A stretch of 20,000 nucleotides of DNA from a bacterium (GCA_046331705.1 JAXLQJ010000010.1:180005-200004), one strand, 5' to 3'. Shown: positions 1 through 4,065, numbered from the stretch's first letter. Made by a program: numbers and translations. Notes: a model not told the origin generated them from the letters alone.

Positions 1-434
1 GCCGAGCAGGTACGCGGCCCGTGGGCGAGAAGGCGCCCAATCCATGGGGGCTTCGCGACATGCTCGGGAACGTCTACGAGTGGTGCAGCGACGGGTACGG
101 GCCGTACGCTCCGGGTGCGGTGCAAGACCCCGCAGGACCTGCCGAGGGCTCGCTTCGCGTGCTCCGTGGCGGCTCTTGGCTCTCGCACGCTGAGTACGTG
201 CGTGCGGCGCACCGGATCAGGGGCGGGCCGGACGCTCGCGACGGCTACCTTGGCTTCCGCCTTGCCCGAGGTCAGGGTGCGCCAGGCCAGGAAAGCGAGC
301 GTGCCGGAGGGGGCGCGGCGCGGGCCGGCCAGGCGGGGACCGCCGTCGGCCCGGCCCGAAGCACGCGACCCCAAGGCGTAAGCCAAGGAGCGGGTGTCAC
401 GAAGACGCGCGCATCGTCCAAGCGGAAGCAATAG
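1..434 (+). CDS. DGR target protein 1, C-terminal part (formylglycine-generating enzyme/FGE-sulfatase family, CLec fold); 5'-truncated by the window edge
   Basis: Frame is open from base 3: [28 protein letters not shown]...RVLRGGSW...R...LGFRLAR, the FGE-sulfatase signature motifs. Paralogous to the C-terminus of 2362-3258. Stop TAG 432-434. Confidence 0.92.
143..270 (+). repeat. DGR variable repeat VR1
   Basis: Ungapped 128-nt alignment to TR 2065-2192. 17 mismatches: 16 at TR adenines and one T>A (TR 2141 vs 219). Confidence 0.96.
271..284 (+). promoter_or_regulatory. IMH-like element of VR1 (GTCAGGGTGCGCCA)
   Basis: Identical 14-mer follows VR2 (3229-3242). TR continues with a different sequence (CGCACGAGCGGGCC), as expected for IMH versus IMH*. 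Confidence 0.7.
321..358 (+). other. Conserved hairpin downstream of VR1 (apex GGCGG-GGA-CCGCC, 332-344)
   Basis: Same 13-nt apex occurs after VR2 (3298-3310). Outer arms CGGGCCGG (321-328) and CCGGCCCG (351-358) are complementary. Confidence 0.6.
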
Positions 435-449
435 GCTCATGGCCAGACC

Positions 450-485
450 ACGCGCGGCCCTTGGCCGCGCGTCGCGCATTTTTCG
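450..485 (+). terminator. Perfect hairpin ACGCGCGGCC-CTT-GGCCGCGCGT followed by a T-run: terminator or DGR cruciform
   Basis: 10-bp perfect stem at 450-472, then CGCGCATTTTTC; lies just after the target 1 stop. Confidence 0.55.
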
Positions 486-515
486 CGAAGCTCACGAGTG
501 GGAGCCGCCGTGCGT

Positions 516-1010
516 ATGCGCTTCTTCACGATTCCCGTCTTCGCCGACGACACTGCCGCGAACGAGCTCAACGGGTTCCTCGCCTCCCGTCGCGTGCTTT
601 CGATCGATCGCCGGCTGATCGACGACGGCCCGGGGAGTGCTTGGGCCGTGTGCGTCACCTACCTCGACGCGACGAGCGGCGCGGCACCGATCAAGAAGGG
701 CAAAGTCGACTACAAAGAGGTGCTTTCCGACGGCGATTTCGCAGTGTTCGTGCGCCTGCGCGCACTTCGGAAGAGCTTGGCCGAGCGCGATGCCGTACCC
801 GCCTACGCCATCTTCACGAACGAGCAGCTCGCCGCGATGGTCGAGCGGTGAGTGAGCACGGCGGCCGACATCGAGTCGATTGAAGGTGTCGGCAAGTCGC
901 GGGTGGAGAAGTACGGCGCCGCGTTCCTCGAGATCCTGTGCTCCGCGGACCTCGCCGCGGCGCCAGCCGCCCTGACGGCCACCACCACCACCACCACCGC
1001 CGCCGAGTAG
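516..1010 (+). pseudogene. HRDC-domain DGR accessory protein interrupted by an in-frame TGA at 849-851 (ORF as read: 516-851)
   Basis: GGAG at 501-504, ATG at 516. ...FVRLRALRKSLAERDAVPAYAIFTNEQLAAMVER*VSTAADIESIEGVGKSRVEKYGAAFLEIL... forms one HRDC domain across the stop. The frame continues to TAG 1008-1010, 7 nt before the RT ATG. Confidence 0.85.
981..998 (+). repeat. (ACC)6 microsatellite encoding poly-Thr in the HRDC tail
   Basis: ACCACCACCACCACCACC read directly. Confidence 0.8.
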
Positions 1011-1017
1011 GCCGCCG

Positions 1018-2028
1018 ATGCCGAGGCGCAGCGCGGTCAGCCTCGGCGAGATCGCATCGTTCGAGAATCTGGCAGCGGCGTTCTGGCGCGCCGCCCGAGG
1101 CAAACGCCACCGGCTGGAGGTGCGCCGCTTCGAGGCGCAACTGGAGCACGAGCTGGCGGCCCTCGCCGCCGAGATCGTCTCGCTTCGTGTGCCGGTCGGG
1201 CGGTTTCACGTGTTCCAGGTCTTCGACCCGAAGCCGCGCCTGATTCACGCGCCGGCCTTTCGCGAGCGTGTGCTGCACCACGCCATGATGCGGCCGATGG
1301 AGCCCGTGCTCGATCGCTCGTTGGTCGACGACACGTTCGCGTGTCGCACGGGGAAAGGCACCTTGGCCGCCGTCGAGCGCGCGCAACACCATCTCAGACG
1401 CTTCTCGTGGTACGCGAAGCTCGATGTGAGGCGCTACTTCGCCAGTGTCGATCATGCGGTTCTTCGAGCGCTTCTCGAGCGCCGCTTCAAGGACCCGGGG
1501 CTTCTGGCACTTTGCGCCCGTGTGATCGATGCGCACCACGCGGCACCCGGGAAGGGCCTGCCCATCGGTGCGCTCACGTCGCAGCACTTCGCCAATCTCT
1601 ACCTCGCATCGCTCGACCGATTCCTCTTGGAGGAGCAGCGCGTGGCCGGGCTGGTGCGCTACATGGACGACGTGGCGTGGTGGTGCGAGACCAAGGAACA
1701 CGCTCGCGAATCGCTTCGAAACGCGGTCCAGTTGCTGCGCGAGCGACTACTGCTCGAGGTTCACCCCAACGCACGCGTTCAGCGCAGCTCGCACGGGCTC
1801 TCGTTCCTGGGTTTCCGCGTGCGGCGGGGCGCGTTGCTGCTTTCTCGGCGGCGGCGTGTGCGTTACCGGGCCGCTCGGCAACGCTGGGAAGAGGCGTTCC
1901 GCCTCGGCCTGGTCGAGGCCCGGACCCTCCAGGCTGGCTATGCCTCCGCGCTCGCGATCACGCTCCACGCCGAGAGCCGGGGCTGGCGCCGGGCGGAGCT
2001 GGTGCTCCATCCGCCGCTGGACGCGTGA
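1018..2028 (+). CDS. DGR reverse transcriptase (336 aa)
   Basis: RT motifs PKPRLIHAPAFRERVLHHA, FACRTGKGT, KLDVRRYFASVDH, GLPIGALTSQHFANLYL (the SQ motif typical of DGR RTs), YMDD and FLGF. No maturase or endonuclease extension. Confidence 0.96.
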   Translation: MPRRSAVSLGEIASFENLAAAFWRAARGKRHRLEVRRFEAQLEHELAALAAEIVSLRVPVGRFHVFQVFDPKPRLIHAPAFRERVLHHAMMRPMEPVLDRSLVDDTFACRTGKGTLAAVERAQHHLRRFSWYAKLDVRRYFASVDHAVLRALLERRFKDPGLLALCARVIDAHHAAPGKGLPIGALTSQHFANLYLASLDRFLLEEQRVAGLVRYMDDVAWWCETKEHARESLRNAVQLLRERLLLEVHPNARVQRSSHGLSFLGFRVRRGALLLSRRRRVRYRAARQRWEEAFRLGLVEARTLQAGYASALAITLHAESRGWRRAELVLHPPLDA

Positions 2029-2051
2029 GCGGCAGCTGGGTAGAAGGTCGG

Positions 2052-2331
2052 TGGACGAGAGTCACGAGGGCTCGAATCGCGTGATCCGTGGCGGCTCTTG
2101 GAACTCGAACGCTGAGAACGTGCGTGCGGCGAACCGGAACTGGAACGAGCCGGACGATCGCAACGACAACCTTGGCTTCCGCCTTGCCCGAGCGCACGAG
2201 CGGGCCGTGGTGCCCGCCCCTGACCCGACTCTCGTCCAGCCCGTCGGTGGGAACGCCGGCGGCAAACAGCAAGCGGGCGCCAGCGTGCCCGTAGCACGGC
2301 GGATGCCGCGTCGAGCGCTCGCTGGCCGCCC
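2052..2331 (+). ncRNA. Putative DGR RNA (TR plus structured flanks/spacer)
   Basis: Non-coding gap between RT and target 2. A 12-bp inverted repeat (2052-2063 / 2227-2238) encloses TR. Further hairpins: 2200-2217, 2241-2262 (GGAA tetraloop, two G-U pairs) and 2275-2331. Confidence 0.65.
2065..2192 (+). repeat. DGR template repeat (TR)
   Basis: 128 nt with 26 adenines, including 8 AAC and 1 AAT codons in the target reading frame. Matches VR1 and VR2 except at A positions. Intergenic. Confidence 0.96.
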
Positions 2332-2361
2332 ACCCTTCGTTTTGTGCAGCGGACGGTCGTG

Positions 2362-3258
2362 ATGGCGGCGGCCTTCGCTTCTCACCCGCTCGAGACGGGC
2401 GTGCCGCCGTCGTGGGCGTGCGAGTGGGGGGACGATCGCTACGGAGTGTGGGCGGGATTCGCGGTGGGCGAGGTCACGCACCGGCTGCGCTGGATCCGAC
2501 CCGGGACGTTCTGGATGGGCTCGCCAAAGGGCGAAGCGGGGCGGTGGCCGGACGAGGGACCGCGTCATCGTGTGACGATCCGCAGCGGGTTCTGGCTGGG
2601 TGAGATGCCGTGTACCCAGGCGCTCTGGGAAGCGGTGATGGGTGAGAACCCGAGCAGATTCCAGAGCCCTACGCGCCCCGTGGAGCGCGTGAGCTGGAGC
2701 GATTGCCAGGCGTTCCTCGCTCGCCTCGGCGAGCGCGTTCCGGAGCTTAAGCCGCGGCTGCCCACCGAGGCCGAATGGGAGTACGCGTGCCGCGCCGGGA
2801 CCACGACCAGCACCTATGCAGGCGAGCTGGTGATTCGCGGCGACAACGACGGCCCGGTGCTGGATGCCATCGCCTGGTACGGCGGCAACAGCGGTGTGGG
2901 ATTCGAGTTGGCCGAAGCAGAGGACTCCTCGAAGTGGCCGAAGAAGCAGCACCCGCACAAGAAGGCGGGGACTCGGCCCGTGGGCTTGAAGGCACCGAAT
3001 CCGTGGGGCCTCTGCGACATGCTCGGAAACGTTTGGGAATGGTGCGGCGATTGGTTTGGTGACTACGCCCCCGCAGCAGTGACCGATCCGACAGGACCGG
3101 CCGAGGGCTCGGATCGCGTGTTCCGTGGCGGCTCTTGGGGCTCGTACGCGCGGAGCGTGCGTGCGGCGTACCGGGACTGGTACGGGCCGGCGTTCGCATC
3201 GACTACCTTGGCTTCCGCCTTGCCCGAGGTCAGGGTGCGCCAAGCGAGGCCGCGGTAG
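2362..3258 (+). CDS. DGR target protein 2 (FGE-sulfatase/CLec fold); frameshifted inside VR2, corrected frame ends at 3491
   Basis: Motifs WIRPGTFWMGSP, EGPRHRVTI, TQALWEAVMGENPSRF, PVERVSW, RLPTEAEWEYACRAG, PNPWGLCDMLGNVWEWC, RVFRGGSW. The expected end [10 protein letters not shown] is in another frame after 3190. Confidence 0.92.
   Translation: MAAAFASHPLETGVPPSWACEWGDDRYGVWAGFAVGEVTHRLRWIRPGTFWMGSPKGEAGRWPDEGPRHRVTIRSGFWLGEMPCTQALWEAVMGENPSRFQSPTRPVERVSWSDCQAFLARLGERVPELKPRLPTEAEWEYACRAGTTTSTYAGELVIRGDNDGPVLDAIAWYGGNSGVGFELAEAEDSSKWPKKQHPHKKAGTRPVGLKAPNPWGLCDMLGNVWEWCGDWFGDYAPAAVTDPTGPAEGSDRVFRGGSWGSYARSVRAAYRDWYGPAFASTTLASALPEVRVRQARPR
3102..3228 (+). repeat. DGR variable repeat VR2
   Basis: 127 nt versus TR: 14 substitutions at TR adenines, one deletion at a TR adenine (between 3190 and 3191) and 2 non-A changes (3150-3151). 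Confidence 0.95.
3229..3242 (+). promoter_or_regulatory. IMH-like element of VR2 (GTCAGGGTGCGCCA)
   Basis: Identical to 271-284 and absent after TR. Confidence 0.7.
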
Positions 3259-3284
3259 CGGCCAGCCAGACCGGTGCGAGCGAG

Positions 3285-3324
3285 CGCGGGTTGGCGAGGC
3301 GGGGACCGCCGAGCAAGACCCGCG
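3285..3324 (+). other. Conserved hairpin downstream of VR2 (apex GGCGG-GGA-CCGCC, 3298-3310)
   Basis: Outer arms CGCGGGT (3285-3291) and ACCCGCG (3318-3324). Apex identical to the one after VR1. Confidence 0.6.
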
Positions 3325-3354
3325 GCGAGCGAGTGAAGCAAGAGCGAGTGCCTG

Positions 3355-3394
3355 CCGGCGCGGGGCGCGCCCCGCGCCGGTTTCGAAATTTTTT
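3355..3394 (+). terminator. 26-bp perfect palindrome CCGGCGCGGGGCGCGCCCCGCGCCGG followed by TTTCGAAATTTTTT: terminator or cruciform
   Basis: 3355-3380 is its own reverse complement; a T-rich tail follows. Confidence 0.6.
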
Positions 3395-3635
3395 GCCGGG
3401 GATCGTGCCTTTCGATCCCACGGTGCTGGCTCTCACAGTTCCGGGCGCGCCGCTGAGCTCGAGTGAGCTCACCGCGCGACATCCCGCGTGACTTGGCCTC
3501 GGACACCGCGCCACGCCCGCCGGGCGGGGGAAGAGGGCCGTCGAGGGACCGACGGCCCGCCAGTCGATCTGTGCAGCACGGTCTCGACGCTCAGCCTTCC
3601 ACCTCTTCGCGCGTGGGCGCTTCGCTGCGAGCGGC

Positions 3636-3661
3636 TGTAACGCTTGCGGCGCTCGGTGGAC
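3636..3661 (+). promoter_or_regulatory. ECF-sigma-type promoter TGTAAC-N16-GGAC upstream of the anti-sigma gene
   Basis: Same spacing and near-identical boxes as the copies at 3961 and 5194. Confidence 0.5.
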
Positions 3662-3708
3662 CGAACCTGGGGCGATTGCCGCGGCCCCGGCACGGGTGGA
3701 GCGAAACG

Positions 3709-3963
3709 ATGCGTTGTGTCGACGTCACCGAGCTGGTCACCGAATACGTCGAGGGGCGCATGCCCCTCGGCGAGCGCTTGCGATTCCAGCTCCACCTCGG
3801 TGCGTGCGGGCATTGCCGCGCCTATCTGGCGCAGATGCGCCAGACGGTTCGCGCGCTCGAGCGCGTCGCGCCGGCGCCCATGCCGCAGGACGTCCGCGCC
3901 GAGCTCGAGCGCCGCTTTCGCGATTGGTCGCGGACCAAGCCCTCGGACGGCGAAGCCGAGTGA
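3709..3963 (+). CDS. Zinc-finger (zf-HC2/ZAS) anti-sigma factor, 84 aa
   Basis: GGAG at 3698-3701. MRCVDVTELVTEYVEGRM...HLGACGHCRAYLAQMR contains the HxxxCxxC ZAS motif. Confidence 0.88.
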   Translation: MRCVDVTELVTEYVEGRMPLGERLRFQLHLGACGHCRAYLAQMRQTVRALERVAPAPMPQDVRAELERRFRDWSRTKPSDGEAE

Positions 3964-3986
3964 AACGCTTTCGCGCGATCCGCGAC
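3961..3986 (+). promoter_or_regulatory. ECF-sigma-type promoter TGAAAC-N16-CGAC upstream of doxX
   Basis: TGAAACGC-N12-CGCGACTGA; both boxes are identical to the copy at 5194-5222. Confidence 0.65.
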
Positions 3987-4065
3987 TGATAGCCGTGAGC
4001 CGCGGCACCGGGTGGCACCGACGATGGGGTCGGACACGCGGCGCGCGACGGCTCGAGAGGAAGCC

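Follow-up and report, generated by a model that had tools for sequence, protein, structure and literature searches.

A chromosomal HRDC-type diversity-generating retroelement with two targets, in a copy that was probably inactivated recently or is decaying

Diversity-generating retroelements (DGRs) that carry an HRDC accessory gene form a described class. In a survey of 372 DGRs they appear as 'Architecture C', with 14 members, about half of which also have avd; cassettes with two targets account for 50 of the 372 (Wu et al. 2018, PMC5758913). A second body of work describes DGR-diversified CLec sensors beside MoxR and trypsin-like peptidases, along with tandem CLec domains in one target, two targets written at different rates and 'degenerate' loci with pseudogenised parts, and mentions related wastewater contigs (Dore et al. 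2024, PMC10907252); the term HRDC does not occur in the main text of that paper. Here we analyzed a 20,000-nt stretch of bacterial DNA (the window; C10:180005-200004 of its assembly), in which positions 1-3400 hold the core of a DGR. The cassette consists, in order, of target 1 (a large protein whose terminal FGE/CLec domain carries variable repeat VR1), an HRDC gene, a reverse transcriptase (RT) gene, the template repeat (TR) and target 2 (with VR2), and the features of the cassette given below are all on the + strand. We read the locus as a chromosomal, two-target DGR of the HRDC type whose present copy has recently been inactivated or is decaying, and place the probability of this reading as a whole at roughly 0.7.

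The locus resembles the HRDC-type DGRs, whose prototype is that of Treponema denticola with its target TvpA, in several respects: an HRDC gene within the cassette, an FGE-subclass CLec target with a C-terminal VR, more than one target, and an AAC-rich TR. The best relative of target 1 in the PDB is TvpA of T. denticola itself (2y3c, 4.8e-26). In contrast to about half of the surveyed HRDC-type DGRs, the genome here yielded no Avd. Further differences are that both targets lie in the cassette, flanking the RT, that target 1 is the end of a large multi-domain protein by MoxR, and that the HRDC gene is interrupted. With the DGR of Bordetella phage BPP-1 (mtd-avd-TR-brt), the locus shares a homologous RT, adenine-specific transfer from TR to VR, repeats that end 3' in a GC-rich block without variation, and RNA structure in the segment that follows the TR. 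It differs from BPP-1 in having HRDC rather than Avd, a TR placed after rather than before the RT, a chromosomal rather than phage-borne location, and two FGE-type targets in place of Mtd.

A repeat search of the window returned a single three-copy family, at 143-270, 2065-2192 and 3102-3229. The middle copy is the TR (2065-2192), a non-coding segment that starts 37 nt past the RT stop codon, has 26 A among its 128 nt and, when read in the target frame, contains eight AAC codons and one AAT codon. VR1 (143-270) shows 17 mismatches to the TR in a column tally, 16 of which are at TR adenines, the remaining one being at T2141 (hypergeometric P 8.9e-13). For VR2 (3102-3228), the best alignment has a single gap, a 1-nt deletion between 3190 and 3191 that is uniquely placed opposite TR A2154; together with 14 substitutions at A, T2113>G and G2114>C, this puts 15 of 17 differences at TR adenines (P 6.6e-11). 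Pooled over both VRs, 31 of 34 differences fall on the 26 adenines. The original prediction, made from the sequence alone, had called this locus a DGR on the basis of the same repeat coordinates, base and codon counts and mismatch numbers, all of which were reproduced by the repeat search and column tally, and realignment bore out the adenine enrichment (16/17 and 15/17) that it had reported.

The RT (1018-2028; 336 aa) is intact and matches RVT_1 (2e-14). DGR RTs are defined by the motifs I/LGxxxSQ and YxDD; the protein has the family residue at each of the 66 columns that are invariant in an alignment of 29 members, among them I183, G184, S188 and Q189 of PIGALTSQ (IGxxxSQ) and Y215, D217 and D218 of YMDD. 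Against the PDB, it matches 8ub7_A (328 aa), which we take to be the Bordetella phage bRT, at 2.5e-38, versus 5.8e-13 for the best group II RT, GsI-IIC, and about 6e-13 for retron-type RTs as well. On the NCBIfam models it reaches 104 bits for group II (cut-off 300) and 37.9 bits for retrons (cut-off 235), and its scores on the DRT models are far below their cut-offs. Judged by sequence, the RT is DGR-type, an assignment made from profile and PDB scores. With 1243 of 8000 scored candidates at E<=0.001, the family is very large, and it is spread over many phyla; the best non-self matches are ∼336 aa long and 57-66% identical. A second RT gene is present in the genome (C2:164256-164954; RVT_1 1.3e-17, 540-aa open frame). 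Because it is not matched by the hidden Markov model (HMM) of the DGR RT family at E<=1e-3, this gene is probably a group II intron or another type of RT.

These data bear on a quite different explanation, namely that the locus is no DGR and that paralogous gene ends have been homogenised by gene conversion beside an unrelated retron or group II RT. Targets 1 and 2 are paralogs, 70% identical, as such an explanation would need. However, the adenine statistics speak against it, as do a TR that codes for no protein, the presence of a TR-like piece directly after the RT in 68 of 79 related loci, and RT scores well short of both the group II and the retron cut-off. We therefore regard gene conversion as scarcely conceivable here.

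Non-canonical TR-VR differences, at bases other than A, are reported in 23% of DGRs (PMC5758913). In the window there are three, and their source became apparent from a metagenome contig, L018, that carries an RT 96% identical to that of the window and includes the TR. The L018 TR differs from the window TR at five positions (2113, 2114, 2141, 2163 and 2166), and all three non-A mismatches of the VRs correspond to the L018 TR base, at three of these five sites: VR1 carries A at column 2141 (VR1 position 219), and VR2 carries GC at 2113-14. Thus, every TR-VR difference traces to adenine mutagenesis plus drift of the TR. In the simplest history, an ancestral TR with GC at 2113-14 and A at 2141 would first have been used to write VR2; the TR would then have changed from GC to TG at 2113-14, VR1 would have been written after that change, and A2141>T would have come last. 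This order suggests that no rewriting of either VR followed the most recent TR changes. As T is copied faithfully, VR1 would not have been rewritten since A2141>T, and the 5' part of VR2 would not have been rewritten since GC>TG. Two caveats apply to this history: the 5' boundary of conversion is known to vary in DGRs (PMC5758913, PMC5703328), and recombination between strains may have occurred.

The two VRs also differ from each other in their substitutions. Ten of the 26 TR-A sites are changed in both VRs, six in VR1 only, five in VR2 only and five in neither; at only two of the ten shared sites do both VRs carry the same base. Given these different substitutions and the different TR-allele footprints, VR1 and VR2 were written in separate events, from different cDNAs, in line with the independent diversification originally claimed. 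The claimed ceiling of 4^26 DNA variants computes to 4.5e15, which corresponds to 6.3e14 protein variants, and none of the 17 A-containing codons of the TR, in the target frame, is able to mutate to a stop codon.

At its 3' end, the repeat contains a GC-rich block of 24 nt (2169-2192) that is identical in the TR, VR1 (247-270) and VR2 (3205-3228) and lies 3' of the last variable A. Just past the block, both VRs continue with GGTCAGGGTGCGCCA (271-285, 3229-3243), whereas the TR differs. The arrangement that characterizes DGRs, in which the VR has an initiation of mutagenic homing (IMH) element and the TR a version of it, IMH*, that is not identical, is hence seen in the sequence, the naming being that defined in PMC5758913, and the 24-nt block is a putative IMH*-like anchor. 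Further downstream, the targets share a 19-nt element (327-345, with a second copy at 3293-3311; 18/19 identical). It lies 57 nt past VR1 and 65 nt past VR2, with poorly conserved sequence in between, and holds a small 5-bp GC hairpin (GGCGG-GGA-CCGCC); no such element follows the TR. With low confidence, we suggest that the element may serve for recognition on the target side, or may simply have been left over from the duplication. When VR-downstream stretches were folded and compared with shuffled sequences, VR1 was no better than the shuffles (z +1.23) and VR2 gave a weak signal (z -1.80, 8/200 shuffles); hairpins or cruciforms after the VRs were rejected on these tests.

A search with the TR of the whole 8.17-Mb assembly, which the original prediction had proposed as a way to find remote targets, recovered the three copies only, the next match being 29 nt long with an E of 0.03. 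Remote targets elsewhere in the genome were accordingly rejected. Also rejected, as a current target, was a third VR at the C-terminus of FGE0, the FGE domain that precedes the one bearing VR1; indels are needed to align this segment to the TR, and of the 29 mismatches 17 fall on bases other than A.

The original prediction did not mention several lesions: a TGA in the HRDC gene, the frameshift in VR2, and a frameshifted upstream MoxR gene and third FGE domain. The HRDC accessory gene (516-1010) is interrupted by an in-frame TGA at 849-851, which splits it into a 111-aa product (516-851) and a 52-codon remainder from GTG 852. When the stop is read as X, the HRDC match spans it (Pfam 2e-17, profile positions 2-68 of 68). 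Homologs have a sense residue at this position in 30 of 30 aligned cases (R in 22, read by eye) and continue past it through the invariant residues G130, G132, R135 and K138. The truncated 111-aa product is present on three contigs, from NCBI and Logan sources, and a contig of run X4 is identical to the window over 717-879; among the four runs compared, the evidence at the TGA codon is confined to X4. No near-identical full-length form was found in a collection of 5.8 billion proteins, where the next best match is 60% identical. In the 95.7%-complete genome, searches for a further HRDC accessory of the family turned up nothing but a RecQ-sized open reading frame (ORF), and Avd (PF05635) was not found.

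Among 73 related loci, three carry independent HRDC lesions of other kinds, which argues for sporadic decay rather than recoding, and accessory-gene decay seems to be recurrent in this RT clade. Programmed recoding of the TGA was rejected, since the broken relatives carry TAG or frameshifts elsewhere and all 30 homologs have ordinary sense codons. At L029 (1115-1564), the HRDC accessory is broken by a TAG that replaces the nearly invariant Gln of FTNEQL; at L062 (6509-6978) and L097 (6543-6981), the gene is frameshifted. At the tail of the window's HRDC ORF, just before the RT start, an (ACC)6 tract (978-997) encodes a Thr run. The length of this tract varies by strain, with 7 additional bases in L018 and 6 gap letters in the X4 contig at 893-1100, and 970-1012 was flagged as a repeat and skipped in the contig alignment.

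The remaining lesions affect the targets and the genes upstream. Through the VR2 deletion, target 2 leaves its frame with 37 nt of VR2 still to come, so that its last strand is out of frame; the missing C-terminal tail is encoded in a different frame (ORF 3135-3491). Among 372 surveyed DGRs, 25 have a TR and VR of unequal length, and 11 of these are frameshifting (PMC5758913). The large upstream gene ends in two FGE domains, FGE0 and then FGE1 with VR1. As assembled, FGE0 is in five pieces, in frames 0, 1, 2, 1 and 0, implying at least four frameshifts, and homology to the intact MoxR of L019 runs through three frames, implying at least two. From the HRDC stop, the VR2 frameshift, the FGE0 and MoxR frameshifts and the absence of VR rewriting since the last TR substitutions, we infer that this copy of the DGR has probably been disabled recently or is losing activity; with the cassette so damaged, its current activity is doubtful. 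Any loss of function would be recent, because the RT is intact and has a dN/dS of 0.17 relative to the sister strain L018.

The main competing explanation is that the DGR is fully active and that the lesions are assembly or consensus artefacts of a strain-mixed hypervariable island, or are harmless. In that case, the TGA would be overcome by read-through or the split HRDC gene would give two polypeptides, the second restarting at GTG 852, and the VR2 deletion would be a transient allele, to be overwritten by the next homing event. Activity was checked on the assembled Logan contigs of four runs (X1, X2, X4 and X5). Where these contigs span a VR, they show 12-21 letter differences from the window (X2 44-274, X2 2619-3232, X5 2775-3240 and X4 2935-3182), counted over the whole contig and over all bases, while X4 contigs over neighbouring stretches differ by 0-2 letters. 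X1 and X4 have no contig over 3190, and the uncovered parts carry no evidence; in X2 and X5, the two of the four runs with cover there, an additional A follows 3190. The VR2 deletion is thus peculiar to this assembly or strain. The locus exists in two or more strain types, window-like in X4 and L018-like in X1, X2 and X5, and the stretch is represented in metagenomes of activated sludge, wastewater and digesters from 12 studies.

Several of these observations weigh against decay and favor an active element. The A missing from VR2 is present in both other runs that cover the site. The deletion may have arisen as an error of assembly or consensus calling, given how variable the stretch is, or may represent just one of many alleles; in other DGRs, frameshifts in VRs at positions facing TR adenines are read as extra mutagenesis (PMC5758913). 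The RT has kept every family-invariant residue and is under purifying selection, strain types coexist in the sludge data sets, and contigs that cover the VRs differ from the window more than contigs over the flanks do. A local assembly error in a strain-mixed island is possible. With GTG directly after the TGA, two HRDC polypeptides are conceivable, and we know of no demonstration that the HRDC accessory is essential. Finally, partial conversion limited to the 3' part, or recombination between strains, could be the source of the TR-allele footprints.

On the other side, the truncated HRDC product is found on three contigs that include Logan assemblies, and no near-identical full-length form turned up among the 5.8 billion proteins. 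Errors are not widespread in the assembly, as rpoB (1410 aa) and rpoC (1495 aa) have open frames and no breaks occur in the 16 kb downstream, so errors would have to be confined to the island. Moreover, at column 2141 VR1 still has the older base of the TR, although faithful copying from the present TR would have replaced it. On balance we consider full activity unlikely, and recent inactivation or ongoing decay remains the reading that we prefer.

Directly 3' of the TR lies a hairpin, GCGGGC-CGTGGT-GCCCGC (2200-2217), followed by G2222, A2223 and C2225, which form a G-A-x-C motif (2222-2225) that is invariant across the clade and located ∼30 nt past the TR. The repeat end, the hairpin and the invariant motif are shared, directly after the TR, by 27 loci of the clade. 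RNAalifold predicted no pairs when run on a sequence alignment of the TR-downstream stretches; the hairpin was picked by eye after this result, and its pairs were then counted. Across the 27 loci the stem covaries, with a score of 0.323 that none of 500 shuffles reached and that exceeds all slid controls (<=0.192). Pair 23-61, for example, is GC in 14 cases, AU in 4, UG in 2 and CG in 1. The hairpin is also present in the centroid fold. A pseudoknot between the loop and 'CATCC' gained no support (64.8% of cells paired, almost no double changes). An Rfam scan of 1-4000 returned nothing relevant, and in our literature searches we found no description of this covarying hairpin or of the invariant motif.

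In BPP-1, cDNA synthesis is primed by an adenosine that lies 56 nt past the TR (A56), in RNA that folds back on itself downstream of the repeat (PMC5703328). By analogy, the hairpin and the G-A-x-C motif may constitute a cDNA-priming element, the counterpart of the BPP-1 spacer. If the mechanism of the family applies, the RT-TR transcript would be reverse-transcribed, with priming probably from the conserved hairpin/GA element just 3' of the TR, and random bases would be inserted opposite the 26 template adenines. The cDNA would then replace VR1 or VR2, anchored at the 24-nt invariant block. Up to 16 codons would be recoded in this way, for ∼6e14 protein variants with no stop codon possible. 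To our knowledge, the mechanism of DGRs that lack Avd has not yet been reconstituted.

The window contains the 3' end of target 1 (1-434), which encodes FGE1, the C-terminal FGE/CLec domain (Pfam FGE-sulfatase 1.3e-21 on the part in the window). The open frame begins 831 nt upstream of the window, giving a protein (P0128) of 421 aa that matches FGE-sulfatase at 2.2e-53 over the whole ORF. Target 2 (P0121; 2401-3258) is a stand-alone FGE/CLec protein of 285 aa as annotated, and its FGE-sulfatase match (1.2e-43) covers profile positions 7-246 of 255 only. In both proteins the VR is at the C-terminal end, and the FGE-sulfatase matches end at the VRs. That the targets are FGE/CLec paralogs on either side of the RT had been predicted and is supported by these Pfam matches and by TvpA as the best solved relative. 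In 90% protein clusters, the window's targets 1 and 2 are singletons, and no near-identical fragments were returned within the length limits.

The source assembly comprises 118 contigs (70% G+C), and its rpoB is at most 65% identical to those of the Myxococcota and Desulfobacterota-like genomes listed. The cassette is part of an island of ∼10 kb, which is preceded by genes for glucokinase and 6-phosphogluconolactonase with full-length Pfam matches. The island also includes a trypsin-like peptidase fragment (Trypsin_2 5e-06, profile positions 1-69 of 144 only), a MoxR-like ATPase gene for which the AAA_5 and bpMoxR matches extend over just the initial part of each profile, and the large FGE-ending gene. 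Over the peptidase-MoxR-target part (L017 4000-10000, equal to window -6000 to 0), every gene upstream of FGE1 looks frameshifted. Downstream, complete zf-HC2, DoxX, MIP, GMC oxidoreductase, glyoxalase, GH63, DSBA and hydrolase genes follow over 16 kb without breaks.

Carriage by a prophage or other mobile element was also considered. The island is lower in G+C (0.64-0.68 vs 0.70 for the genome), and the distribution of the RT family over many phyla implies horizontal transfer. However, Pfam scans of ORFs from 8 kb upstream to 17 kb downstream revealed no gene for a phage structural protein, an integrase or a transposase, and the best phage RTs are only 34-40% identical, all 132 phage records being below 60%. 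We judge a mobile carrier very improbable; the element is a chromosomal (cellular) DGR, as the original prediction had supposed from the lack of phage genes nearby.

DGRs are reportedly known to diversify putative sensors of MoxR/vWA/VMAP 'ternary' conflict systems, as Kaur et al. are said to have described in 2020, and the locus appears to sit in this described setting of a diversified sensor of a MoxR conflict system. Unlike those systems, no vWA was seen by Pfam (E up to 0.01) in the surviving N-terminal piece of the diversified protein, 302 aa from upstream. This piece is 30% identical to residues 271-456 of a 1272-aa protein of L016.

For comparison, 83 related loci from many phyla were collected and scanned with HMMs built for this analysis; they include loci from Azospirillum, Rhodoblastus, Accumulibacter, Zoogloea, Thauera, Enhygromyxa, Ca. 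Electrothrix, Planctomycetota and Gemmatimonadota. With loci that have enough flank as denominators, HRDC is directly upstream of the RT in 73/73 and a VR-bearing FGE end lies upstream in 57/57, in addition to the TR-like piece right after the RT noted above. A second FGE gene is found downstream in 26/70 loci and MoxR upstream in 21/43. The whole order FGE-HRDC-RT-TR-FGE occurs in 20 of 50 loci and is the commonest full layout among the RT relatives; L016 and L019 have intact versions of it. The order target-HRDC-RT-TR-target is thus the norm for this RT clade. It does differ from that of BPP-1, as originally pointed out, but with 20 of 50 related loci sharing it in full, the layout is not unusual. 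On a Magnetococcales contig (L015 2861-3151), a second TR-like open frame, which translates to ...RGGSWNNDARNVRAASRNGNHPDDRNDNLGFRCA..., lies 1.4 kb past the RT, beyond a 354-aa ORF.

HRDC-type DGRs, two-target DGRs and MoxR-linked DGR targets are all already in the literature, and the present locus adds one chromosomal HRDC-type, two-target DGR from an uncultured sludge bacterium to the described class. The points that go beyond routine are only two, the TR-allele reasoning and the TR-proximal hairpin. Comparison of TR alleles between strains explains all non-A differences at this locus and orders the homing events, and it could be applied to the 23% of DGRs in which such differences are seen. 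The hairpin and invariant motif provide a concrete candidate for the priming element of Avd-less DGRs. One may go a step further and view the locus as a natural knock-out, in which the VRs keep older TR alleles and have not been rewritten since, and in which the sole accessory gene carries a nonsense mutation, with the hairpin and G-A-x-C acting, separately, as the priming element. We offer this combined view tentatively and have more doubt than confidence in it. If true, it would show from a natural population that DGRs without Avd need the HRDC protein for retrohoming.

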